Source: an uncultured Roseicyclus sp. (GTDB lineage: Bacteria; Pseudomonadota; Alphaproteobacteria; Rhodobacterales; Rhodobacteraceae). Taken from it: a stretch of DNA of 64,000 nt. The stretch covers positions 337,400 through 401,399 of the forward strand of contig CANLEH010000003.1 of assembly GCA_947489665.1 (NCBI GenBank), in the 5' to 3' direction. The notes below the pieces were generated by a model that was given only the letters and a program-made list of their open reading frames with translations, searched no databases and was not told the origin of the DNA. A program made the position numbers and the translations under genes. Each line of letters begins with the position of its first letter. Positions within the stretch are counted from its first letter, which is position 1. Of this stretch, positions 6,770 through 20,259 are shown in pieces.

Positions 6770-7603
6770 TCACCCCTCCACCGGCGCCAAGACCCGCCGA
6801 TACAAATGCCATGTCGCGTGCCCAAGGATCGGCAACGTAAAGATCAGACCCAGAAAGGCGGGCACCAGCGACAGCACCATCGTGACCGAGACGATCGCCG
6901 CCCAGCCCAGCATCACCACCGGGTTTTCCACAACAGCCCGAACCGACGTCACCATCGCGGTCACAAAATTCGTCTCCCGGTCCAGCAACATCGGCATCGC
7001 AATCACCGTCACCGCAAACAGAACCGCTGACAAAGCCGCGCCAACCACGGTGCCCACGGCAAGGAAGGTCCAGCCCTCCGGCGTGAAGAAGACCACATTC
7101 AGAAAGCCCTCGAAATCCGAGAAGGAGGAATTCTGCAAGATCAGCGCCAACCAAAGCCGGATCTGGTAAACCCACACCCAGAAGACGAACAGCGTGACAA
7201 ACGCCATCCAGCCCATCTCGCGGTTCCTTTGGTTGGCCATAACCGTCAGGATCTCGGACCAGCCGAAAGGCTCACCCCGCTCCATCCGGCGCGACATCTC
7301 GTAAAGCCCCGCTGCCGCGAATGGCGCGACCAACGGAAAGCCCACGGCGGCGGGAATGATCATCCACAGCATCTCAAGCCAGACGAGGCACCAGACGAAG
7401 AAGATCCCGAATATCGCGTAGAACAGCCCGAAAAAGCCACTCATCACGGGCCGCGCCAGAAAGTCAGAAAACCCCGCTTTAAGGGACGCGCGAATGTCTT
7501 CAGCGGTGACAGCATTCACACGCGGCATCTCTTGCCGATGCGGCGACAGATCTTTCGGTGGTGTGGAACCTGCGGAACCGGACGTCATGTCATATCCTTC
7601 CAA
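6770..7603 (-). CDS. Integral membrane protein, DUF2189-like
   Basis: 277-aa ORF with several hydrophobic spans (FGLFYAIFGIFFVWCLVWL, MIIPAAVGFPLVAPFAAAGL, and others). The family assignment is from memory of COG5473/DUF2189. Confidence 0.55.
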   Translation of the reverse strand: MEGYDMTSGSAGSTPPKDLSPHRQEMPRVNAVTAEDIRASLKAGFSDFLARPVMSGFFGLFYAIFGIFFVWCLVWLEMLWMIIPAAVGFPLVAPFAAAGLYEMSRRMERGEPFGWSEILTVMANQRNREMGWMAFVTLFVFWVWVYQIRLWLALILQNSSFSDFEGFLNVVFFTPEGWTFLAVGTVVGAALSAVLFAVTVIAMPMLLDRETNFVTAMVTSVRAVVENPVVMLGWAAIVSVTMVLSLVPAFLGLIFTLPILGHATWHLYRRVLAPVEG

Positions 7604-7769
7604 GGCATGGCACCGCCCCGGTCATGTGTCACACGGCCCGGCGGTGATACTGACATCGCGCTTCCATGGGCGATCCTGCATCAGGTAGGTCATCAGAACA
7701 AGGTTGGGCTAAATCTCTCGTTCCTGCATCGGGGCGATCCACCCAGCCCCCTGCCAAACAGACCGGTGC

Positions 7770-7997
7770 TCAAGAACAGCAGGACACTCCGTTCTGGATC
7801 GGCGGGCACGCAACATCCCCGTAGGAACAATAAACGCAGCAATCCCCCTCGCGAGGGCGCAGCACAACGCGGCAGGACGTGCATTGGTAAAACCATTGGC
7901 AAGCATCCGTCGGCATCGTCTCCGCCTCAGCATGCCCGCATTCAGGGCAGGTGAGCGTCGACACCAAGGTCAACTCCGTCGCGTCTTTCGCCACCAT
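7770..7997 (-). CDS. GDCCVxC-domain small cysteine-rich protein
   Basis: 75-aa ORF containing CPECGH, CQWFYQCTSC and the literal GDCCVYC motif. It overlaps the end of a MerF-like ORF upstream. Confidence 0.8.
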   Translation of the reverse strand: MVAKDATELTLVSTLTCPECGHAEAETMPTDACQWFYQCTSCRVVLRPREGDCCVYCSYGDVACPPIQNGVSCCS

Positions 7998-10502: not shown

Positions 10503-11336
10503 ATGCCCGAAATCCACCAAATCCCACTGAACGACATCGACGAATACGCCCTCCCCCGCGACCGCGACGCCCTCGATCAGACCGACCTCTCCGACCTCAC
10601 CCTCTCCATCGCCGCCCACGGCCTCCGCATGCCGATCGAAGTCTTCCCCGCAACCGGCCCCAAACCCTACGGCCTCATCTCCGGCTTCCGCCGCCTCTCC
10701 GCCCACCGCGAGCTCACCCTCGACACCATCCCCGCCTTCATCCGCCAACCCGCCGACATCCCCTCAGCCCTCGCCGCCATGATCGAGGAGAATGAGATCC
10801 GCGCCGACATCACCCCGTGGGAGCGCGCCAAAATCGTCCTCACCGCCATCGACCACGGCCATTTCGACACCATCGACGCGGCCCTCCCCCGCCTCTACCC
10901 CACCTACGACCGGTTCCGCCAAACCCGCCTCCGCGCCGTGGCCGAGGTCGTGGCCCATTTCGGCGAGTCCACTCTGACCGACCCACGCGCCCTCTCCCAA
11001 CGCCAACTCACCCGCCTCGCCACCAACCTGCGCGCGGGCATGGGCGACACCATGCTGGTCGCCCTCCAAGAGTCCTCCGACAAGTCCCCCGCCACCCAAT
11101 GGAGCCTCTTGGCTGCCATCTGTGAGGACGCAGAGGCCGAGGCCAAAGCCTCCAGACTCCAATACAAGGAAGGCCGCCCCCGGCATCACGTCCGCGTCCA
11201 AAACGACCTAACCGTCCGCCGAGAGCGCACGAAAGATGGCTGGACCCTGCGGTTCACGGGGAGGACGGCGTGCGGTCCGCTGATGGAGGACATCATGGAT
11301 TACGTCGAAGACACCTTCGGCCACCGCCAACGCTGA
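10503..11336 (+). CDS. ParB/Srx N-terminal-domain protein (orphan ParB-like, nuclease/CTPase fold)
   Basis: 277-aa ORF. GLRMPIEVF...YGLISGFRRLSAH matches the ParB box (GxRRxxA). IEENEIRADITPWERAKIV matches the ENxxRxDLxPxE block. No parA lies next to it. Confidence 0.7.
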   Translation: MPEIHQIPLNDIDEYALPRDRDALDQTDLSDLTLSIAAHGLRMPIEVFPATGPKPYGLISGFRRLSAHRELTLDTIPAFIRQPADIPSALAAMIEENEIRADITPWERAKIVLTAIDHGHFDTIDAALPRLYPTYDRFRQTRLRAVAEVVAHFGESTLTDPRALSQRQLTRLATNLRAGMGDTMLVALQESSDKSPATQWSLLAAICEDAEAEAKASRLQYKEGRPRHHVRVQNDLTVRRERTKDGWTLRFTGRTACGPLMEDIMDYVEDTFGHRQR

Positions 11337-11346
11337 CGGCTGGCAC

Positions 11347-11401
11347 CCGTAGGGTGGGTGAAACCCACCATTCCGAACCGTAGGGCGGGACTAGTCCCGC
11401 C
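11347..11401 (+). repeat. Two tandem REP-like hairpin elements sharing a CCGTAGGG leader
   Basis: CCGTAGGGTGGGTgaaACCCACC spans 11347..11369 and CCGTAGGGCGGGACtaGTCCCGCC spans 11378..11401. Each is a perfect 7-8 bp stem. A third GC hairpin lies at 11425..11455 (GGGCAG ... GCGCGCaaGCGCGC ... CTGCCC). Confidence 0.7.
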
Positions 11402-11612
11402 GCCCCGGCCAGTTCAACACACCCGGGCAGAATCAAGCGCGCAAGCGCGCTGCCCATCGCCGGGCCGCCCCCCGGCACGGCGATTTGGCTGATCTTGGTA
11501 CTCCGCTTGTTCTGTGGGACGTGCTTGGCTACCATTAAGCGCCTTGAAACGACCGTCGGATCGCCGCACTGCGGCCCGTCGATGGGCCTGTACTTACAAT
11601 CAATAGAGATGA

Positions 11613-13208
11613 CTATTCGATATCAATTGATATCCCTTCCCCATTCTCCATCGCCCGCCACCAAGTCGTTAGATTTCCGTCCATGATTATCGCGCTCGGA
11701 GCGGTGGCTTCCAAACGGATTGATTCAAGTTCTTGGGTCAACGTTTTTTCAAGCGAACTAATGGGCTGTTTGAATGCAAAAGACTTTACGATCTTTGGAT
11801 TGCCAAAATAAAATGTCTGACGCAATCTGTCTCTCTTGCGGGCTTTGTGGTCGATTTGGTAAATCGCACCCACGCTCCAAGAGCCAATTTTCGTACAAGA
11901 ATAGCCGATCAAAAGTTCAAACTCATCCACGTCACTCTTGAATTCACCGTCAAAACGCAACGACCCTGATTGCATAATGGCAGTTGCCAGGTGCATATCG
12001 GCAACGTTTTTCTGAAATTCCGAGAAACTAGTCTGTACTTCGCTAGATTTTTGGGGCCCGAGAAGGTCGCAAATGTGCGCTCCAACTTTGGCATGCTGAT
12101 AAATCCAGTCACCGGGAAGCGGCGGATCGCTGACCTCGCCACCAAACAATTTTCCGTGTTCTAAGTGTACTTCAAAACGTAGCGGCTTCTTGCTCGCATA
12201 CGCGAGCATTGAAACCAATCCGATCTTTTGGTCGAAGGGGCCGTACCCATCTAGGTCAAGTGAGAACCGAATGTCGTTTACACTCTGATTTGGAGATGTG
12301 AGAATATCGATGCCGCCCGCATCGATACGGATGCGAAAGTTCGGGTCCGTTGGGTGAATCAGTTTCGGCACGCGGCAAATCGCTGAAATATCAAAAAAGC
12401 GGCCGTTTTCATCTAGAATTTTCAGTACTGCGGGCATGGGTTCTGATGTGATCTTCATCCGACCATCATCACCGAAGCGATTCTGTACCGGTACTTCAAT
12501 CCCAAAGCGCTGATCAAATAATTGGAAGTTGGCTACTGGTATATCTTCTGAAAGCCCAAGTTCGTGTAGTACGACCTCCTCAGCGGACGCAGTGTTTGGG
12601 ATGGAGAAAACTCCTCGATGTGTGAATTCACCGTAGCCAACGGTGTCGATCAATTCGATCTTTCTTGCAGAGTACTTTCCGGCCCCATGTTTTTGGATGA
12701 CCTCATATAGCCAGTCACTTGGGCATACTTCGATAGCATCTGCCTGCGAAAATGATAGCGACCAAGTTGATTTATGGAGGGGGGCTCCGCCCCCCTTTTG
12801 TGAGTGCATTCGCGCACGTTTTAGTATGGCTTCAATTTCTTCGCGCCAAATATGACGACCATAAAGAACGGGTCCTTCTTTCATCCTCTGATGATGAAAT
12901 AGAAAAATGAATGTGGGACTAGGAGATTTTGCAGCCTTCACCGCGTTGCTGAGTTTAAGTCGGGTCTTGGGCTGTTCCGCGCTAGTGGTCTTGATTTGGG
13001 CAAAGCATTGAAACAAATGATTGGCCAGATCGCTAGGCAATTGCTGATTCGAAGGCGGTCTGAGATCAATAACATGATCCCAGCCGTTCTCGTCGTCAGA
13101 GGCTTTATTTACTACAGCGTCGATTCCTGCGGCTGGACTTTGGCACCGCTCGGAAAATAAAGCTTCGCCGTGTCGTCCCTGCCTGGATGCGTTGTCTGCA
13201 GTCAACAA
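11613..13208 (-). CDS. Orphan 531-aa protein on a low-GC islet: N-terminal DUF4365-like PD-(D/E)xK nuclease-fold domain plus about 400 aa of unknown function
   Basis: Long uninterrupted ORF in an AT-richer stretch with a TTG start at 13208. N-terminal landmarks are GRHGEALF, DENGWDHVIDL, FAQIKTT and PTFIFLF. I recognise no other motif: no Walker A, no TM segment, no repeats. Confidence 0.75.
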   Translation of the reverse strand: MLTADNASRQGRHGEALFSERCQSPAAGIDAVVNKASDDENGWDHVIDLRPPSNQQLPSDLANHLFQCFAQIKTTSAEQPKTRLKLSNAVKAAKSPSPTFIFLFHHQRMKEGPVLYGRHIWREEIEAILKRARMHSQKGGGAPLHKSTWSLSFSQADAIEVCPSDWLYEVIQKHGAGKYSARKIELIDTVGYGEFTHRGVFSIPNTASAEEVVLHELGLSEDIPVANFQLFDQRFGIEVPVQNRFGDDGRMKITSEPMPAVLKILDENGRFFDISAICRVPKLIHPTDPNFRIRIDAGGIDILTSPNQSVNDIRFSLDLDGYGPFDQKIGLVSMLAYASKKPLRFEVHLEHGKLFGGEVSDPPLPGDWIYQHAKVGAHICDLLGPQKSSEVQTSFSEFQKNVADMHLATAIMQSGSLRFDGEFKSDVDEFELLIGYSCTKIGSWSVGAIYQIDHKARKRDRLRQTFYFGNPKIVKSFAFKQPISSLEKTLTQELESIRLEATAPSAIIMDGNLTTWWRAMENGEGISIDIE

Positions 13209-13276
13209 GTCTAGAATTTCCCTAACAAAACCTTAACGCCAAACCTAAAACCCAACAATCCCAATCACTTAACCCC

Positions 13277-13296
13277 TTTGTGCACGCGTGCACAAA
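13277..13296. repeat. 20-bp perfect palindrome TTTGTGCACGCGTGCACAAA just 3' of the smc stop, at the right edge of the islet
   Basis: Read directly. smc stops at 13301..13303. It may act as a terminator stem for smc, but no clean U-run follows. Confidence 0.6.
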
Positions 13297-13300
13297 CCCC

Positions 13301-16300
13301 TCACGCCACCAGGGCCTCGGCCTTTTTCAGGTCCACCGACACCAGCTGGCTCACCCCCTGCTCGCCCATCGTCACCCCGAACAGCCGGTCCATGCGGGCC
13401 ATCGTGACCGCGTGGTGCGTGATCGTCAGGAACCGTGTATCCGTCTGGCGGGTCATCTCGTCGAGCATGTCGCAGAACCGGTTCACGTTGGCGTCGTCCA
13501 GCGGCGCGTCGACCTCGTCCAGCACACAGATCGGCGCCGGGTTCGCCAGGAACACCCCAAAGATCAGCGCCAGCGCCGTCAACGTCTGCTCGCCCCCGGA
13601 AAGCAGCGAAAGCGTCGAGAGTTTCTTGCCCGGCGGTTGGCACAGGATCTCCAGCCCCGCTTCCAGCGGATCGTCCGATTCCACCAGCACCAGCCGCGCT
13701 TCCCCGCCCCCAAAGAGGTGCGTGAACAGTTTCGAGAAGTTCGCGTTCACCTCGTCGAACGCCTTCAACAACCGCTCCCGCCCTTCCTTGTTCAGCGAGG
13801 CAATCCCCGTTCGCAGCTTCGCAATCGCCGCTTCCAGGTCCTCTTTCTCGGTCAGAAGCCCGTCATGCTCCTCCCGAACCTCCCGCGCATCCTCTTCCGC
13901 CCGCAGGTTCACCGCGCCCAAAGCGTCCCGCTGACGCCGTAGACGCATAACATCCGCCTCAATCCGGTCGAGCGACGGCAAAGGCTCCGGCAATTCGCCC
14001 AAGGAGTCACGCAAAGCCTCCGGTGACATCTCCGTATCCTCAGCAATCCGCTCAGCCGCCGCCTGCACAGCCTCCGCCGCCGCATCCCGCCGCGCTTCCG
14101 CCGCAGCCCGCCCTTCCCGCGCTTCCGAGGCCGCGCGCTCCGAATCCCGCTCCGCAGCCGTCGCCGCACGCAGGTTCGACTCACCGACAGACAAAGCATC
14201 CGCCGCCGCCGCCTTCCGCGTCTCAGCCTCGGTGATCTGAATTGCCAGAGTTTCCCGCCGCTCCGCGATTTCCCCAGGCTTCTGCTTGGCATCCGCTAGC
14301 GCACCCTCAGCCTCACCGCGCCGCTTCTCAAGCTCGGCAAGCCGCGTTGCTGCATTCGTCAAACGGTTCTGCCAGCTGGTGATCTCCTGCCCGATCTTGG
14401 TGATGCGAGAGACGCGGTCCTCACCATCGCGCTTCACCTCATCAAAGGCGGCGCGTTTGGCCAGCATGGTCATCCGCGCGGCTTCGACGGTGGTTTTCAC
14501 ATCGGCGAGCTTCTGACGCACGGCCTCCAGATCATCCAGCTCGGCCAAAGCGTCCTGCGCCCGAACCAACTCAGCGCGCGCCGTCTCAGCCTCTTCTGCA
14601 TGGCGGGCCGCTGTCAGCCGCAAAGTCTCCAGCTTGCCATCCAGCACACTTTGATCCGCCTCAGCTCGCGCAGCAGCGCGGCTGGCTTGGCTCAACTGCG
14701 TTTCAGCGTCGCGCCGGGCGGTGCGGGCGGCCTTGTCGGCCTCGGTCAGATCCGCGAGGCGCTTCGTGGCGGCTTCGTGTTTTTCAACTTCCGCATCCGC
14801 AGCGGCGCGGGCCTTGCGTTGCTCAGCCTGCAACTCCGTCAAGCGGTTGGCCTGTTCCAGACGGCGCGCTGCCGTCGAAACGGCATCCGCGGCGGCGACG
14901 GCGAACCCATCCCACCGCCAGAGGTCGCCTTCACGGCTGACAAGGCGCTGGCCGGGCTGGAGAAGCGGCTGCAGGCGCGGACCGTCAGCCACATCGATGA
15001 TGCCGATCTGGGAAAGTCGGCGCGAAAGGATTGCCGGTGCGGTGGTGACGTCAGTTGCCGGTTGCGCACCTGTTGGCAGCGGCGCAGCGCCGTCGTAGCC
15101 GGGCAAATCGGACCAGCCGGAGGCCCCAGGCGTTTCGGCGCGCGCGGCTTTGAGATCGTCGGACAAAGCGGCACCGATTGCGGCCTCAAACCCCGGAGAA
15201 ACGCTAACCTCATCAAGGACTTGGCCGCCATCGCCCCGCTCGCGCTCCAGCACGCGGGACAGCGCGTTGACTTCGGCGTCGAGCGTTCCGGCTTGGCCTT
15301 CGGCCTCGGACCTGGCAGAGCGGGCCTCTGCCTCCGTGGTCTGCGCTTCAGCGCGGGCGGCCTCGGTCGAAAGGAGCGCCTCTTCCGCACGGGCTGCAAG
15401 ATCGGTGGCGGCGGTCAGAGCATCCGCTGCGTCCGTGGCTTCGCGCTTCAACCCCTCGAGACGCGTCGCCGCCTCGGACGCGGCGGCTTTGGCGTTTTCG
15501 GCGTCGGTCTCGTTGCGGGACACCGCTTTTTCAGCTTCGCCAATGCGGCGTTCAATCGCCTGATGGCGGGCCGCCAGTGCAGCGGATTGTTCCGTGAGAT
15601 CAGAGAGTTCCGCCTCCTGCCCTGCAAGAACGGATCGCGCGTCGGTGACTTCATCGCGGGCAAGGGCCAGGCGTTCATCCTGCCCGTCTTGTTGGGCCTG
15701 AAGTTCCACCCGTTCGGTGCGCAAACGCTCCACGGTTTCGGATGCGTCGGCGTTCAGCGTCTCCTCCCGCTCGCGGTCCTTGTTGATTTGCGCGATGCGG
15801 GCGGAGAGGGTTTCAACGGCGGCTTCGGCGCGATCGGCCTCGGCCTGCAGCGAGTCGCGTTCGACCATGAGACGTTGGAGGATCGCGGCGGCGACGGCGT
15901 CTTCTTCGCGGAGGGGCGGCAGCGCCTCTTCCGCGGCTTCGCGGGCCTTCACGGCGTCGCGTGCGGCGGCTTCGGCTTGAGCGGCAGTGGCCAGGCCTGC
16001 ACGCAAAGCCTCTTCCGCGCGGAGGCGGGCTGCGTCGGCGTCGCGCCAGCGCAGGAACAGGAATAGGCCCTCGGCGATGCGCAGCTCGGACCCGATTTCG
16101 CGGTAACGGGCCGCCTGTTTTGCCTGCCTTGCCAATGAGTTAAGCTGCGAGGCGAGTTGTTCGAGCACGTCGTCGATACGGGCGAGATTGGTCTCGGCCG
16201 CTTTCAATTTCAGTTCTGCTTCATGGCGGCGCTGATAGAGGCCGGAGATGCCGGCGGCCTCTTCAAGCACGCGACGGCGCGCCTTGGGGCGGGCGTTGAT

Positions 16301-16756
16301 CAGCTCGGCAATCTGGCCCTGACGGACGAGCGCGGGGCTGTGCGCGCCGGTGGAGGCATCGGCAAAAAGCATCGACACATCGCGCGCGCGGACGTCTTTT
16401 CCGTTGAGTTTATAAGCACTTCCGGCGTCCCGGGTGATGCGGCGGACGATGTCGATTTGGTCTTCATCGTTGAACCCTGCGGGGGCCAGACGGTCCTCGT
16501 TATCGATCTGCAGCGACACCTCGGCAAAGTTGCGGGCGGGGCGCGTGGCGGCACCGCCGAAGATCACGTCTTCCATGCCTGCGCCGCGCATCGCAGTGGG
16601 GCGATTTTCGCCCATCACCCAGCGTAACGCCTCAAGAAGATTGGATTTTCCGCAGCCGTTGGGACCCACAACGCCCGTCAGACCATCGGCAATCACGAGG
16701 TCCGTGGGGTCGACGAAGGATTTGAATCCATTGAGCCTGAGCTTGGTAAACCGCAC
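13301..16756 (-). CDS. smc: Chromosome segregation protein SMC
   Basis: Track ORF 13301..16840. I prefer GTG 16756 (VRFTKLRLNGFKSF), the usual SMC N-terminus. It has Walker A GPNGCGKSN, long coiled-coil Ala/Glu/Arg-rich arms, C-terminal LSGGEQ and DEVDAPLD. ATG 16840 would add 28 non-conserved residues. Confidence 0.9.
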   Translation of the reverse strand: MRFTKLRLNGFKSFVDPTDLVIADGLTGVVGPNGCGKSNLLEALRWVMGENRPTAMRGAGMEDVIFGGAATRPARNFAEVSLQIDNEDRLAPAGFNDEDQIDIVRRITRDAGSAYKLNGKDVRARDVSMLFADASTGAHSPALVRQGQIAELINARPKARRRVLEEAAGISGLYQRRHEAELKLKAAETNLARIDDVLEQLASQLNSLARQAKQAARYREIGSELRIAEGLFLFLRWRDADAARLRAEEALRAGLATAAQAEAAARDAVKAREAAEEALPPLREEDAVAAAILQRLMVERDSLQAEADRAEAAVETLSARIAQINKDREREETLNADASETVERLRTERVELQAQQDGQDERLALARDEVTDARSVLAGQEAELSDLTEQSAALAARHQAIERRIGEAEKAVSRNETDAENAKAAASEAATRLEGLKREATDAADALTAATDLAARAEEALLSTEAARAEAQTTEAEARSARSEAEGQAGTLDAEVNALSRVLERERGDGGQVLDEVSVSPGFEAAIGAALSDDLKAARAETPGASGWSDLPGYDGAAPLPTGAQPATDVTTAPAILSRRLSQIGIIDVADGPRLQPLLQPGQRLVSREGDLWRWDGFAVAAADAVSTAARRLEQANRLTELQAEQRKARAAADAEVEKHEAATKRLADLTEADKAARTARRDAETQLSQASRAAARAEADQSVLDGKLETLRLTAARHAEEAETARAELVRAQDALAELDDLEAVRQKLADVKTTVEAARMTMLAKRAAFDEVKRDGEDRVSRITKIGQEITSWQNRLTNAATRLAELEKRRGEAEGALADAKQKPGEIAERRETLAIQITEAETRKAAAADALSVGESNLRAATAAERDSERAASEAREGRAAAEARRDAAAEAVQAAAERIAEDTEMSPEALRDSLGELPEPLPSLDRIEADVMRLRRQRDALGAVNLRAEEDAREVREEHDGLLTEKEDLEAAIAKLRTGIASLNKEGRERLLKAFDEVNANFSKLFTHLFGGGEARLVLVESDDPLEAGLEILCQPPGKKLSTLSLLSGGEQTLTALALIFGVFLANPAPICVLDEVDAPLDDANVNRFCDMLDEMTRQTDTRFLTITHHAVTMARMDRLFGVTMGEQGVSQLVSVDLKKAEALVA

Positions 16757-16933
16757 GGGATGCCTGCCTGTATTCTTCGATTCTTGGGTCGGGAGAGTTT
16801 CCGGATCGCTCTGCGGTGAGTCAACAGCGGCACGCTTCATCTCGCGTGTTTCGGCGGGTTATCCCCAAGATATGCGGGTCGTGGGCAAATATATGATAGC
16901 GTCGACCCAGTGGCCCAAGCCCGGTGGGAACTG

Positions 16934-17004: not shown

Positions 17005-17226
17005 TCAGTTGGGCGTTTCGTTTCCTGCGACCGCCTCGAGCAGGTCACCGGGCTGGCATTCGAGCACCTCGCAGATCTTCGCCAGGGTTTCGAACCGGAT
17101 GCCCTTTACCTTGCCGCTTTTGAGAAGGCTCAGATTTTGTTCCGAAATGCCGATCTGTGCCGCAAGCTCCCGGCTTTTCATCTTGCGCAGAGCAAGCATG
17201 ACATCGAGTCGGACCACGATTTCCAC
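17005..17226 (-). CDS. XRE-family helix-turn-helix transcriptional regulator (YozG-like)
   Basis: 73-aa ORF with a GTG start overlapping the stop of the upstream DUF2975 gene (TAGTG). It contains the HTH LAAQIGISEQNLSLLKSGK. Confidence 0.8.
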   Translation of the reverse strand: MEIVVRLDVMLALRKMKSRELAAQIGISEQNLSLLKSGKVKGIRFETLAKICEVLECQPGDLLEAVAGNETPN

Positions 17227-17768
17227 TAGATAAACCCACGATTGTCTTCGGCGATGCGTGCCGCTTCGCCCATGACCCAGCCGATGACCACGATCAACCC
17301 TCCGCCAAGAAAGAAGCCGATGTCACCCTGCGAGAAGGTGATGACGACGGTTTGCGGCCCGGTTTCATTCACCATGGTGAGCAAGAGCACGATCACAGTG
17401 TTCGACAGCACCCCCGCCAGTCCGATGTAGATGAGGCCCTGACCGCAATGTCGAATGCGGGTGGCGCAGCGATCGCTGATGGTTTCTCCGTCGAGATAGA
17501 GGCTGAACAGTCCGCGCATCTGCCACAGGACGTAGAATATGAGCGGGACGCTGACGGCCTGTATCGCGCGCACGAGAATGAGGGTCCAGGTGGGCACCAC
17601 GCTTGGAAGAACGTAGTCGGCAAATTCCCGCTGAAGGGCGGGTTCACCGGCCAGACCCGTCGCAATGGCATAGATAAAGAAGGCCGGCATTAGGATCAGA
17701 CAGGCCGTGCAGATGAGCTTGAGAACCCGTGCAAGGCGTTGAATGCGAGGGAAAGTTCGTTCGTTCAT
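17226..17768 (-). CDS. DUF2975-like polytopic membrane protein
   Basis: 180-aa ORF with 4 hydrophobic spans. It is translationally coupled to a YozG-like HTH gene, the usual DUF2975 context. Confidence 0.6.
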   Translation of the reverse strand: MNERTFPRIQRLARVLKLICTACLILMPAFFIYAIATGLAGEPALQREFADYVLPSVVPTWTLILVRAIQAVSVPLIFYVLWQMRGLFSLYLDGETISDRCATRIRHCGQGLIYIGLAGVLSNTVIVLLLTMVNETGPQTVVITFSQGDIGFFLGGGLIVVIGWVMGEAARIAEDNRGFI

Positions 17769-18474: not shown

Positions 18475-18891
18475 ATGGAGGATAAGGTCCTGACCGGACT
18501 TACTCAGGCGGCACCAACGGCCGCACCCAGCGCACGCCATGCGCGCCCAGAGCCGACTTACTCCAGCGAGGAGCTGTTGAAGCGGATCCTGACCTCTCTT
18601 GATGAAGACAAGGCCGAAGACGTTGTGCAGATTGATCTGCGCGGCAAGTCGTCGATTGCCGACTACATGGTCGTGGCCTCTGGCCGCTCGACCCGGCAGG
18701 TTGCGGCGATTTCGGAAAAGCTTGTTGAGCGTTTGAAGGCCGAGTTTGGCCTGCTTGCGAAAATGGAAGGCAAGGATGCGGGCGATTGGGTCCTGATCGA
18801 CACGGCGGACGTGATTGTCCACGTGTTCCGGCCCGAGGTGCGTGACTTCTACCAGCTGGAAAAGATGTGGCAGCCCCCGGCGGCCACCTGA
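18475..18891 (+). CDS. rsfS: Ribosome silencing factor RsfS
   Basis: 138-aa ORF. The block IADYMVVASGRSTRQVAAISEKL...DWVLIDTADVIVHVFRPEVRDFYQLEKMW is the RsfS/iojap signature. Confidence 0.85.
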   Translation: MEDKVLTGLTQAAPTAAPSARHARPEPTYSSEELLKRILTSLDEDKAEDVVQIDLRGKSSIADYMVVASGRSTRQVAAISEKLVERLKAEFGLLAKMEGKDAGDWVLIDTADVIVHVFRPEVRDFYQLEKMWQPPAAT

Positions 18892-18898
18892 GGCTTGG

Positions 18899-19366
18899 AT
18901 GAAGGTTCATCTTTGCGTCGTCGGTCGCCTGAAAGGCGGGCCGGAGAAGGCGCTGATTGACGAATATCTGGACCGTTTCGACAAGACGGGGCGTGGCCTT
19001 GGGCTGACGCTTGGCCGTGTTGTGGAAGTGGAAGACCGCAAGGGCGGTGGCATGGCGGCGGAAGCGGAACTGTTGCGCAAAGCCCTGCCGTGTGAGGCCT
19101 TTTGGGTGATGGATGAGCGCGGGGACGTCATGACCTCGCCTGACTTCTCCAGGCGTCTGGGCGCGCAAAGGGATCGTGGGGCCGGGGACCTGGCGATTGT
19201 GATCGGTGGGGCCGATGGCACCGACCCGGGCTTTCGCGCGCAGGCCGGGCTGGCGATTTCCTTTGGCAAGATGGTGTGGCCCCATATGCTGGCCCGCGTG
19301 ATGCTGTCCGAGCAGTTGTACCGGGCGGCGTCGATCCTGTCGGGCTCCCCCTATCATCGGGTTTGA
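18899..19366 (+). CDS. rlmH: 23S rRNA (pseudouridine1915-N3)-methyltransferase RlmH
   Basis: Track ORF 18815..19366 trimmed to ATG 18899 (MKVHLCVVGRLKGGPE). It ends with the SPOUT C-terminus WPHMLARVMLSEQLYRAASILSGSPYHR. Confidence 0.85.
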   Translation: MKVHLCVVGRLKGGPEKALIDEYLDRFDKTGRGLGLTLGRVVEVEDRKGGGMAAEAELLRKALPCEAFWVMDERGDVMTSPDFSRRLGAQRDRGAGDLAIVIGGADGTDPGFRAQAGLAISFGKMVWPHMLARVMLSEQLYRAASILSGSPYHRV

Positions 19367-19369
19367 AGG

Positions 19370-19393
19370 ACAGGAAAACTGGAGTTTTCCTGT
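19370..19393. terminator. Perfect 10-bp hairpin between convergent rlmH and kpsM
   Basis: ACAGGAAAAC-tgga-GTTTTCCTGT starts 4 nt after the rlmH stop and is followed by TGAATTTCTG. Confidence 0.6.
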
Positions 19394-19422
19394 TGAATTT
19401 CTGCAGAAATCCGCGGCGCGCT

Positions 19423-20259
19423 TCACTGCATCAGGATGTCCTGGCGGTGACGGCGCAGCAGTAAGAGCCCGAAGAACAGCGGGATCAGCGCCCAGAGCAT
19501 GACCAATGTGAAGGACACGTAGTCGGGCTGGTAGGTCGGGTAGACCCCTTGCCGGAACAGCGTGGTGGCGTGAATCCACGGCGTCCACCACAGCACGTCC
19601 TGCGCGTTTTGGGGCAGGTCTTCGACGATGAAGAACACGCCGGCGGCCACCAGCAACGGGCGCGAGAGGATACCCCAGACCTGTGCCCATGCCGGAAACA
19701 GGCCAGCAAGCGCGCAGTTGAGGGTGCCGTGGCCCAAGCCAAGCATCGCCATCATGAAGAGTGCGCCGAGGATTGGAACAAGGTCGAGCGTGGTGTTCGT
19801 TTCCGTCCACCAGATGATGCCTGCCATGGAGATGGCGACGACGCCGATGCCGGTGAGCGTGTTGAGGAAGAAACGCGCCAGCACCGCGTCGATCCACGAC
19901 ACGGCGGGGTACATCAGCAGCGGTTTGGAGAAGGTCAGCGCCAGGCTGATATGCTGTTGCAGATTGTTGTAGAGGTAAAAAACCAGGTAGCCCGAGGCGT
20001 AGAACAGCAGAAATGACGACCCGAGCGGCGGCACGCGGATCAGGAATTGCAGGGCGATGGAGATCACGATGACGGCGCCGACAGGCTCCAACACTGCCCA
20101 GACATAGCCGCCGGGTGAGCGGCCATAGCGCGTCGACATCTCGCGGAGCATGAGCGCAAGCGTGGCGCGCGTTGCGCGGGTTAGCTTGCCGGTGGGCAGG
20201 GCGACGCGTTGCGGTTGGGCGTGGCTTGTCACGCGGTCCTCACATTTCGGGCGGGGCAT
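19423..20259 (-). CDS. kpsM: Capsular polysaccharide ABC-2 transporter permease
   Basis: 278-aa ORF. LMLREMSTRYGRSPGGYVWAVLEP aligns with the KpsM N-terminal motif (FLREIRTRFGK..LGYLWAILEP). It has six hydrophobic spans. Confidence 0.8.
   Translation of the reverse strand: MPRPKCEDRVTSHAQPQRVALPTGKLTRATRATLALMLREMSTRYGRSPGGYVWAVLEPVGAVIVISIALQFLIRVPPLGSSFLLFYASGYLVFYLYNNLQQHISLALTFSKPLLMYPAVSWIDAVLARFFLNTLTGIGVVAISMAGIIWWTETNTTLDLVPILGALFMMAMLGLGHGTLNCALAGLFPAWAQVWGILSRPLLVAAGVFFIVEDLPQNAQDVLWWTPWIHATTLFRQGVYPTYQPDYVSFTLVMLWALIPLFFGLLLLRRHRQDILMQ

Follow-up and report, generated by a model that had tools for sequence, protein, structure and literature searches.

Nuclease domains of the DREN/DUF4365 kind are already known from SPARDA and from Divona. 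The DREN nuclease of SPARDA cuts double-stranded DNA non-specifically, and only when four copies assemble in a filament (bioRxiv 10.1101/2025.04.08.647717). For TmuRE, an alignment assigned Q62 and K64 to the putative DUF4365 active site, and the Q62A/K64A mutant provided an inactive control complex (PMC10810196). Divona is a single-gene DUF4365 anti-phage protein carried in chromosomal-integron cassettes of Vibrio cholerae, and has been experimentally validated (bioRxiv 10.1101/2024.07.02.601686). Of the sites that accumulate defence genes, the core defence hotspots cDHS1 and cDHS2 of Pseudomonas aeruginosa are bracketed by core genes, extend over 1–224 kb (median 26 kb), contain many mobile genetic elements, and have been proposed to recombine through their flanks (PMC10250203). 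The subject of this report is a small, low-GC (guanine plus cytosine) cassette located between a parB-like gene and smc in a 64,000 nt stretch of DNA (hereafter the window) from an uncultured Roseicyclus sp. (assembly GCA_947489665.1, contig CANLEH010000003.1, positions 337,400–401,399). It carries one gene (the cargo), which encodes a 531 aa protein of an unnamed family.

With moderate confidence, the segment at about 11588–13219 is best explained as a horizontally acquired single-gene cassette in a parB-like/smc defence hotspot, encoding a stand-alone, two-part immune nuclease that would confer abortive-type immunity. Hotspot cargos are a known kind, and so are DUF4365 nucleases that act as immune effectors. 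The parB-like/smc location of the hotspot has not been described before, and the C-terminal fold of the protein, which has no match, is also new. The two features at the centre of the analysis are:

11588–13219, no strand: variable low-GC cassette of about 1.63 kb, with no counterpart in related genomes (blastn and boundary alignments A3 and A4).
11613–13208, minus strand: cargo gene, 531 aa, unnamed family, with a TTG start and an 11 nt cassette-specific leader (open reading frame (ORF) listing).

A low-GC cassette with a single gene

In 300 nt windows, the GC content is 0.46–0.50 over about 11.5–13.3 kb compared to 0.62–0.70 on either side, with an immediate recovery in smc. The minimum 1 kb value (0.476) is 5.7 standard deviations below the mean of the remaining 1 kb windows (0.620, standard deviation 0.025), and the next-lowest value elsewhere in the 64 kb is 0.568. 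An abrupt low-GC islet at about 11.48–13.27 kb had been recognised in a first-pass annotation of the sequence, and is the strongest compositional outlier of the window (z = −5.7). The same annotation had noticed a preference for A/T at third codon positions, and this was borne out: the cargo ORF has a GC content of 0.481 and a GC content at third positions (GC3) of 0.485, the lowest among the 42 ORFs of at least 200 aa in the window (mean 0.714, standard deviation 0.081), while the GC3 values of the parB-like gene, smc and mltB are 0.86, 0.74 and 0.83, respectively. It was also correct that the islet holds exactly one ORF of 531 aa, as the cargo ORF (11613–13208) is the sole credible ORF in the low-GC interval; it is on the minus strand.

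The limits of the acquired segment were located by blastn against three related loci (L013, L014 and L015, see below). Homology to these ends at 11582–11587 and restarts at 13220–13223, so the acquired segment is taken as approximately 11588–13219. The cargo ORF fills it except for 25 nt past the stop codon and 11 nt ahead of the start codon. The earlier description of the islet as recently acquired is supported in so far as its composition is foreign and the slot is variable, but 'recent' cannot be dated because the entire family is low-GC in every host.

No tRNA, recombinase ORF or Rfam match was found in the low-GC interval, and direct repeats flanking the segment were nothing beyond chance-size matches, in agreement with the first-pass view that integrase, transposase, tRNA and flanking direct repeats are lacking. 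The sole inverted repeat spanning the edges is 24 nt long with 71% complementarity. An integrative element, such as a prophage, integrative and conjugative element (ICE) or transposon, was ruled out on these grounds (no recombinase ORF, tRNA target or meaningful flanking repeats). An integron gene cassette was likewise ruled out, as the distance from the stop codon to the left breakpoint is 25 nt (0 nt in L015) and there is no integrase among the neighbouring genes.

The parB-like/smc junction in related genomes

The junction was compared in five related Roseobacter-group loci (L013–L017), the lineage concerned being Roseobacter of the Hasllibacter/Gymnodinialimonas type. All five keep mltB and the parB-like gene on the left and smc on the right, with flank DNA identities of 77–92%, and all five junctions are occupied; a strictly empty one was found in none of them. 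The genes in the slot are as follows:

L013, Hasllibacter sp. MH4015: 517 aa reverse transcriptase, full-length Drt8 match (PADLOC E = 2e-145).
L014, metagenome-assembled genome (MAG) GCA_947500415: 562 aa AAA_21 ATPase, AriAB/AriA/OLD-type matches (PADLOC E = 2e-22).
L015, G. hymeniacidonis: 536 aa protein, full-length HEC-07 match (PADLOC E = 1e-178).
L016 and L017, two metagenomic contigs: a pair of genes for 210 aa and 351 aa proteins, no PADLOC match.

Counting the window, the slot is occupied by five different cargos, three of which match PADLOC models. The junction thus varies between syntenic flanks, its cargo being Drt8, HEC-07, an OLD/AriA-like ATPase or a two-gene pair in the relatives. 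The breakpoints agree within about 5 nt across the window and L013–L015, and the three cargos that were measured have GC contents of 0.45–0.51 and a GC3 of about 0.48 in hosts of about 0.65 GC. The Drt8 and HEC-07 cargos are oriented as in the window, and the ATPase cargo is on the opposite strand. HEC-07 is a candidate embedded in Hma systems and has been described as a RelE-type RNase protein (bioRxiv 10.1101/2024.01.29.577857). The possibility that the L015 cargo is a homologue of the window protein was rejected, since BLASTP shows no similarity and the protein is HEC-07. The Drt8, HEC-07 and OLD/PARIS-type occupants share with the window cargo the slot, a similar size (517–562 aa), a low GC content and single-gene status, but they carry reverse transcriptase, RelE-type RNase and ABC-type ATPase domains, and are unrelated proteins.

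Because the backbone is constant, the cargos differ and the breakpoints are the same, the parB-like/smc junction is a core defence hotspot, miniature and unusually precise, with the ORF as one of its interchangeable cargos. As the relatives carry known anti-phage genes in the same slot, the cargo stands out as a strong candidate for a new defence against phages or plasmids that consists of a single protein. It does not behave as an ancient core gene: its closest homologue is 55% identical, and no homologue has a parB-like/smc context. Exact-sequence look-ups found no identical ParB-like or cargo protein in another assembly. The slot resembles cDHS1 and cDHS2 in its constant core flanks, differing known defence systems, low GC and lack of a single mobilising element, but differs from them in having occupants of one or two genes (about 1.6–2.2 kb), breakpoints defined to a few nt, and conserved non-coding edge blocks.

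The two-gene cargo of L016 (8883–10979) and L017 (4731–6827), on the minus strand in both, has no Pfam or PADLOC match. By its position it is another candidate undescribed defence system. L014 carries an extra 184 aa ORF (7372–7926, no Pfam match) between mltB and the parB-like gene that neither the window nor any other relative has.

The cargo protein family

Sequence searches of Pfam, PADLOC, NCBIfam and the PDB gave no match for the window protein. The family is new: it has no name, and PADLOC, Pfam and NCBIfam all miss it; the first-pass annotation had likewise been unable to place the protein in a named defence system. A search of 5.8 billion proteins gave 33 close relatives. None of these has a name or a Pfam domain, and their hosts are Rhodobacteraceae, Roseibium and uncultured Alphaproteobacteria. 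The best of them is 47% identical, rising to 55% for a contig of Rhodobacter capsulatus SP108. An exhaustive search with a threshold of E ≤ 1e-3 recovered 1,409 cluster representatives, of which 728 also pass E ≤ 1e-10; almost all have 500–540 aa and align over their full length, and the ten distant members that were looked up are all 'hypothetical' or unnamed. A word-index search with the alignment of distant members (A2) returned the close family only. No mention of six family accessions or locus tags was found in the literature. A tblastn search of 50,697 phage records gave no match, and IMG/VR viral contigs contained no relative.

The only PADLOC match of the superfamily is to PDC-M02A, which is marginal and limited to six of 37 distant members (E about 0.003–0.005). 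PDC-M02 is a multi-gene candidate, unlike the solitary cargo, and it has no match in the window protein or the close family. One homologue, in a Neomegalonema MAG (L003, 10001–11573), is split by a frameshift (tblastn pieces 8–424 and 417–530), and is either a pseudogene or an assembly error.

The N-terminal nuclease domain

An AlphaFold2 model of the whole protein, built from the family alignment, has a predicted local distance difference test score (pLDDT) of 87.6, and was used for fold searches. The features of the N-terminal part are:

12798–13208, minus strand: predicted DUF4365/DREN-type PD-(D/E)xK nuclease domain, residues 1–137 (Foldseek, motifs and transitive homology).
13164–13166 (E15), 13077–13079 (D44) and 12990–12998 (Q71-I-K73), minus strand: putative catalytic residues, coordinates verified.

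Foldseek matched the model to SPARDA DREN-APAZ chains of 9qcc, 9jt2, 9vx6, 9jsz and 9qbp (probability 0.77–1.0), with 9qcc_M (E = 3e-6, probability 1.0) and 9jt2_B (probability 1.0) at the top. The next structural matches were Hjc resolvases (probability 0.90–0.97), followed by EcoRV, HincII and SwaI. The DREN matches vanish when residues 140–531 are searched alone. In alignment A2 (37 sequences, 20–47% identical), D39, D44, Q71 and K73 are invariant and E15 is present in at least 90%. The catalytic signature, a Glu in helix 1, an Asp in beta 2 and QxK in beta 3, is thus present, its positions fit the predicted strands, and Q71/K73 correspond to Q62/K64 of TmuRE.

Sequence profiles reach the domain through distant members. 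PF14280 (DUF4365) matches ten of the 37 full-length superfamily members (best E = 6e-5), and gave no match to the window protein and 29 close relatives even at E ≤ 10, so that DUF4365 membership is by transitive homology only. One full-length homologue, on a Vibrio megaplasmid, is annotated as 'DUF4365 domain-containing protein' and scores 24.4 against a gathering cutoff of 24.3. Given the DREN fold match, DUF4365 in distant homologues and the conserved catalytic signature, residues 1–137 are predicted to be a DREN/DUF4365 PD-(D/E)xK nuclease with an intact catalytic signature. The nuclease-like N-terminus suspected in the first-pass annotation can in this way be given a fold (PD-(D/E)xK) and a type (DUF4365/DREN).

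The cargo shares its nuclease fold and QxK signature with the SPARDA DREN-APAZ proteins (XauSPARDA, 9qcc; NbaSPARDA, 9jt2/9jsz; TmuRE), and in both the nuclease is N-terminal on a longer regulatory polypeptide. By analogy, the cargo probably acts as they do, as an assembly-activated, non-specific DNase. The sequences themselves have no detectable similarity. SPARDA also differs in having a short Argonaute neighbour, which the cargo and the examined homologue loci do not have, and an APAZ domain, which the 390 C-terminal residues of the cargo are not. Membership of SPARDA was rejected for this reason, the neighbours here being the parB-like gene and smc. As the C-terminal region has no APAZ match and there is no adjacent Argonaute, the resemblance is limited to the nuclease domain.

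The C-terminal region

11616–12797, minus strand: C-terminal region, residues 138–531, the proposed sensor/regulatory part (separate AlphaFold2 model, no fold match).

Modelled alone, residues 140–531 gave a pLDDT of 87.8 and a predicted template modelling score of 0.75. In a fold search with this model, the best PDB match had a probability of 0.25 and was not significant, and BFVD gave no significant match that would indicate viral structural mimicry. An APAZ identity was rejected, as no SPARDA, SPARTA or APAZ chain was retrieved and TtAgo appeared with a probability of just 0.05–0.06. Identity of relatives to the window protein falls from 56% in the nuclease domain to 33–38% over residues 138–320 and 24–31% over residues 321–531, the last ~210 residues being the most variable part. 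Invariant residues outside the nuclease (Y179, K183, R234-F235 and R294) cluster in the middle region, i.e., the first half of the C-terminal region. A gradient of this kind would be expected where a conserved effector is fused to a sensor that is diversifying.

Divona is the closest described protein in overall layout: it and the cargo each consist of one gene with an N-terminal DUF4365/Mrr-type nuclease and a non-nuclease C-terminal domain, in a compact cassette. Divona differs in its C-terminal crr6 domain (PF08847) and its integron/attC setting, and the cargo is set apart from it by domain description; crr6 is absent from the matches of 30 close members (at a relaxed cutoff of E ≤ 10) and of 37 distant members (at E ≤ 1).

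The main rival explanation also concerns this region, and still makes the cargo a defence gene, by another mechanism. It supposes a solitary restriction-type nuclease (type IV/Mrr-like), in which the C-terminal region reads a modification or structure of foreign DNA and cutting is direct, with no abortive infection or oligomerisation switch. A stand-alone PD-(D/E)xK nuclease with no adjacent methyltransferase would suit it, as would the presence of EcoRV, HincII and SwaI among the structural neighbours, conserved basic and aromatic residues of the middle region (Y179, K183, R234 and R294) that could contact nucleic acid, and a hotspot shared with other defence genes. However, no known modification-reading or DNA-binding domain (SRA, winged helix or helix-turn-helix (HTH)) was found in residues 140–531 by fold search, nor by Pfam. 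The closest structural relative is a DREN effector, which is non-specific and active only when assembled, and a variable distal C-terminus fits the recognition of a protein or ligand better than that of a DNA modification. Direct restriction of the type IV kind is considered unlikely, although a reader fold of an unrecognised type is conceivable.

Genomic contexts of the homologues

No insertion site is shared among homologues, and none is at the parB-like/smc junction. Full-length homologues are all 9–19 GC points (mostly 10–19) below their own flanks, and the truncated homologue of L007 is about 5 points below. Clean single-gene islets occur in Paracoccus (between prfB and an opp operon), Roseibium (between an isochorismatase gene and macB) and an alphaproteobacterial MAG (between a nitroreductase gene and glyA, with spacers of 34 and 54 bp). 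Several homologues lie in mobile elements or beside defence genes, the association that the first-pass annotation had anticipated. That of L011 is near AlpA, a relaxase, an integrase and a 1245 aa SIR2 protein, and that of L012 near REase-ARP, DruA and three transposases. In Legionella the homologue is on an ICE, between integrases and traD; in Klebsiella it is on an IncFIB plasmid, adjoining integrase and primase fragments; and in Pectobacterium it is on a plasmid, adjoining an integrase. The R. capsulatus copy adjoins a primase-like protein. On plasmid p53363 of Bradyrhizobium guangxiense (L024, 6197–12222), a SIR2 and DUF87/HerA pair is 0.6 kb downstream of the homologue and MobC/relaxase is nearby; the plasmid is a symbiosis plasmid, and this neighbourhood makes up a small cluster of defence genes. 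The L024 homologue may share an operon with an HTH gene that lies 16 bp upstream. No Piwi or Argonaute gene was found among the called neighbours in L008–L012 or the scanned neighbours in L001, L002, L004 and L006.

In Paracoccus halophilus (L002, 11623–13452), a neighbour of the homologue encodes a 609 aa protein without Pfam or PADLOC match. Its GC3 is 0.62, compared to about 0.87 in host genes, and it may have been co-acquired.

These contexts bear on three further explanations. The cargo could be the toxin or addiction gene of another conflict system (an interbacterial effector or a plasmid-stabilising nuclease) stranded in the chromosome. Many relatives are on plasmids and ICEs, and DUF4365 domains are reported among toxins associated with extracellular contractile injection systems (PMC11297309). 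However, no secretion-system, immunity or antitoxin gene adjoins the cargo in the window or its homologues in more than ten homologue loci, Pfam shows no signal peptide or delivery domain, and the alternative cargos of the slot are defence genes, making a toxin very unlikely.

A second explanation is a selfish, free-standing gene of the homing-endonuclease type, which would cut empty intergenic sites and be copied in by repair. This would account for solitary low-GC insertions without an integrase. In keeping with it, the window, Paracoccus, Roseibium and the MAG each have a precise, solitary insertion between core genes, at a different site each time and with spacers down to 34–54 bp. The DREN tetramer also resembles the PD-(D/E)xK homing endonuclease I-Ssp6803I (bioRxiv 10.1101/2025.04.08.647717). 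But the same slot, with the same breakpoints, is used by cargos that are not endonucleases (Drt8, HEC-07 and the ATPase), from which it follows that turnover at the slot is independent of the cargo gene. No two homologues have a common insertion site, and neither phage records nor viral contigs, both rich in homing genes, yielded a member of the family. Free-standing homing endonucleases are much smaller than 531 aa, and the cargo, with its extra region of 390 aa, exceeds them. A homing gene is thus very improbable.

Equally improbable is the third, a housekeeping or repair nuclease of odd composition, or a decaying and functionless remnant. Some of the contexts are purely housekeeping and the L003 homologue is split, as such an origin might predict. 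The distribution is patchy, however (the 33 close relatives noted above), and the gene is absent from the host's nearest sequenced relatives; its GC content is foreign in every host, and the 531 aa ORF is intact, with all catalytic and family-invariant residues kept.

Flanking genes and conserved edge blocks

The genes and non-coding elements on either side of the cassette are:

10503–11336, plus strand: ParB_N-domain protein, 277 aa, left-flank core gene outside the cargo (Pfam ParB_N, E = 2e-10).
11349–11401, plus strand: two GC-rich hairpin motifs (GTAGGGYGGG...CCCRCC) just past the parB-like stop, a local conserved element (hairpins at 11349–11369 and 11380–11401).
11395–11587, no strand: conserved non-coding left-flank block of about 190 nt, ending exactly at the cassette edge (alignment A3).
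13220–13300, no strand: conserved right-flank block that separates the smc stop from the cassette and includes a palindrome (alignment A4, five loci).
13301–16840, minus strand: chromosomal smc, 1179 aa, right-flank core gene outside the cargo (TIGR02168 SMC_prok_B, 813 bits compared to a cutoff of 567).

The ParB_N domain and the TIGR02168 score confirm the flanking genes as first named. The ParB-like protein has 622 homologues at E ≤ 1e-20, with identities of 87% in Hasllibacter sp. MH4015, 75–78% in Gymnodinialimonas spp. and 53% in Jannaschia sp. CCS1, and its gene is syntenic with mltB in all relatives. The smc gene shows 81–85% DNA identity to the relatives whatever the cargo. A functional link between cargo and SMC of the Wadjet or Lamassu kind was rejected, as smc is the canonical chromosomal gene and is kept regardless of the cargo.

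The hairpins past the parB-like gene had at first been compared to repetitive extragenic palindromic (REP) elements at the left edge of the islet. The motif has two matches in the 64 kb, both at 11349–11401, and in 24 loci it was found only in L013 and L015, at the same syntenic spot. As it is confined to one position in the window and relatives, it is not a dispersed REP, and that reading was rejected. Comparison with the relatives places the hairpins in the conserved flank, outside the acquired segment.

The left block (11395–11587) is 79–90% identical in L013–L015 and absent from L016/L017. It holds a 17 nt long-range inverted repeat (11452–11468 and 11571–11587). A known RNA was rejected (no Rfam or tRNA match, and folding z-scores of −1.4 and −1.8 that are not significant against shuffled sequences), as was a small ORF, the reading frame being lost in L014 and the block missing in L016/L017.

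About 60 nt of the right block is more conserved across the five loci than the neighbouring smc coding sequence. It includes a perfect 20 nt palindrome at 13277–13296, past the smc stop, where it had been seen at first; it belongs to the conserved flank rather than to the acquired segment. Pairing is intact in 100% of cells over the five loci, with four of the seven pairs changed on both sides, and since it is maintained by compensatory changes the palindrome is a selected dyad, which would be a hairpin in the RNA or else a symmetric site for protein binding. As the block lies upstream of the minus-strand cargo, it may supply expression signals for the cargo and/or terminate smc. Possible roles are those of a terminator for smc, an operator, or a promoter region common to whichever cargo lies downstream. 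Two metagenome scans with the conserved right-flank block, made as a wider census, gave no match.

Proposed mode of action and cargo exchange

In the preferred reading of the cargo as an abortive-type immune nuclease, the DREN PD-(D/E)xK domain (E15, D44 and Q71-x-K73) would be the DNA-cutting effector, and the C-terminal region of about 390 residues, the distal half of which is diverging fastest, would be the sensor and regulator. In uninfected cells the C-terminal region would hold the nuclease inactive. A cue derived from infection or from a plasmid would be sensed by this region and lead to self-association, and the resulting multimeric arrangement of DREN domains would cut double-stranded DNA, as in SPARDA filaments. 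Degradation of the invader DNA, and probably of host DNA as well, would then stop the spread, as in abortive infection. Because the SPARDA DREN cuts only once assembled, a stand-alone DREN protein would need an equivalent switch.

Several points weigh against this interpretation. The trigger and self-assembly are extrapolated from SPARDA, whose activation needs an Argonaute partner that is absent here, and no recognisable sensor or oligomerisation domain was found in the C-terminal region. The nuclease-domain call rests on predicted structure, motifs and transitive homology, and the window protein is without any DUF4365, PADLOC or PDB sequence match above threshold. The hotspot rests on only five loci, of which L016 and L017 are near-duplicates, and several homologue contexts are purely housekeeping. 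Lastly, a scan of the right block upstream of the cargo found no sigma-70 consensus.

If the interpretation is right, a widespread single-protein defence family, with more than 1,000 clusters across Proteobacteria, plasmids and ICEs, has been overlooked by current annotation tools, and the DREN nuclease, so far known under Argonaute control in SPARDA, can also answer to another, structurally unassigned sensor. This would bear on how immune nucleases are silenced and on the engineering of triggerable nucleases. The parB-like/smc pair would provide a simple marker for new defence genes, such as the L016/L017 cargo, in the marine Roseobacter group, where few hotspots have been mapped.

Since recombinase, tRNA and target-site duplication are all lacking, cargos are most likely exchanged after DNA transfer, with the conserved flanks serving as substrates for homologous recombination. 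The sharp breakpoints that the loci share may simply show where selection on flank elements ends in streamlined genomes. Cargos of about 1.6–2.2 kb, together with flanks, may be small enough for the gene-transfer-agent particles of Rhodobacterales. If true, sharp breakpoints formed without a recombinase would make the slot a tractable case for studying how core-genome defence hotspots are refilled.

A more far-reaching combination of these elements is distinctly unlikely as a whole. It holds that the cargo represents a new stand-alone DREN immune family in which the unmatched C-terminal fold replaces Argonaute/APAZ as sensor and assembly switch, and that the slot is a dedicated single-gene 'cassette socket'. 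Its edge blocks (about 190 nt on the left, and about 60 nt with the covarying palindrome on the right) would be recombination sites and/or a platform for expression common to all cargos, with unrelated defence genes swapped at nucleotide-precise breakpoints and without a linked recombinase, and exchange at the size of gene-transfer-agent particles could occur.

Other variable genes near smc

A 465 aa ORF at 18500–19897 (minus strand) of the window has the second-lowest GC3 (0.523) and no PDB sequence match, and may be a foreign gene. Downstream of smc, L013–L015 carry a pair of genes with HTH_26 and DUF2975 domains, and the window has a DUF2975 gene at 17226–17768, next to an HTH gene. The pair is missing in L016/L017, where rsfS directly follows smc, and it is a second small variable module beside smc.

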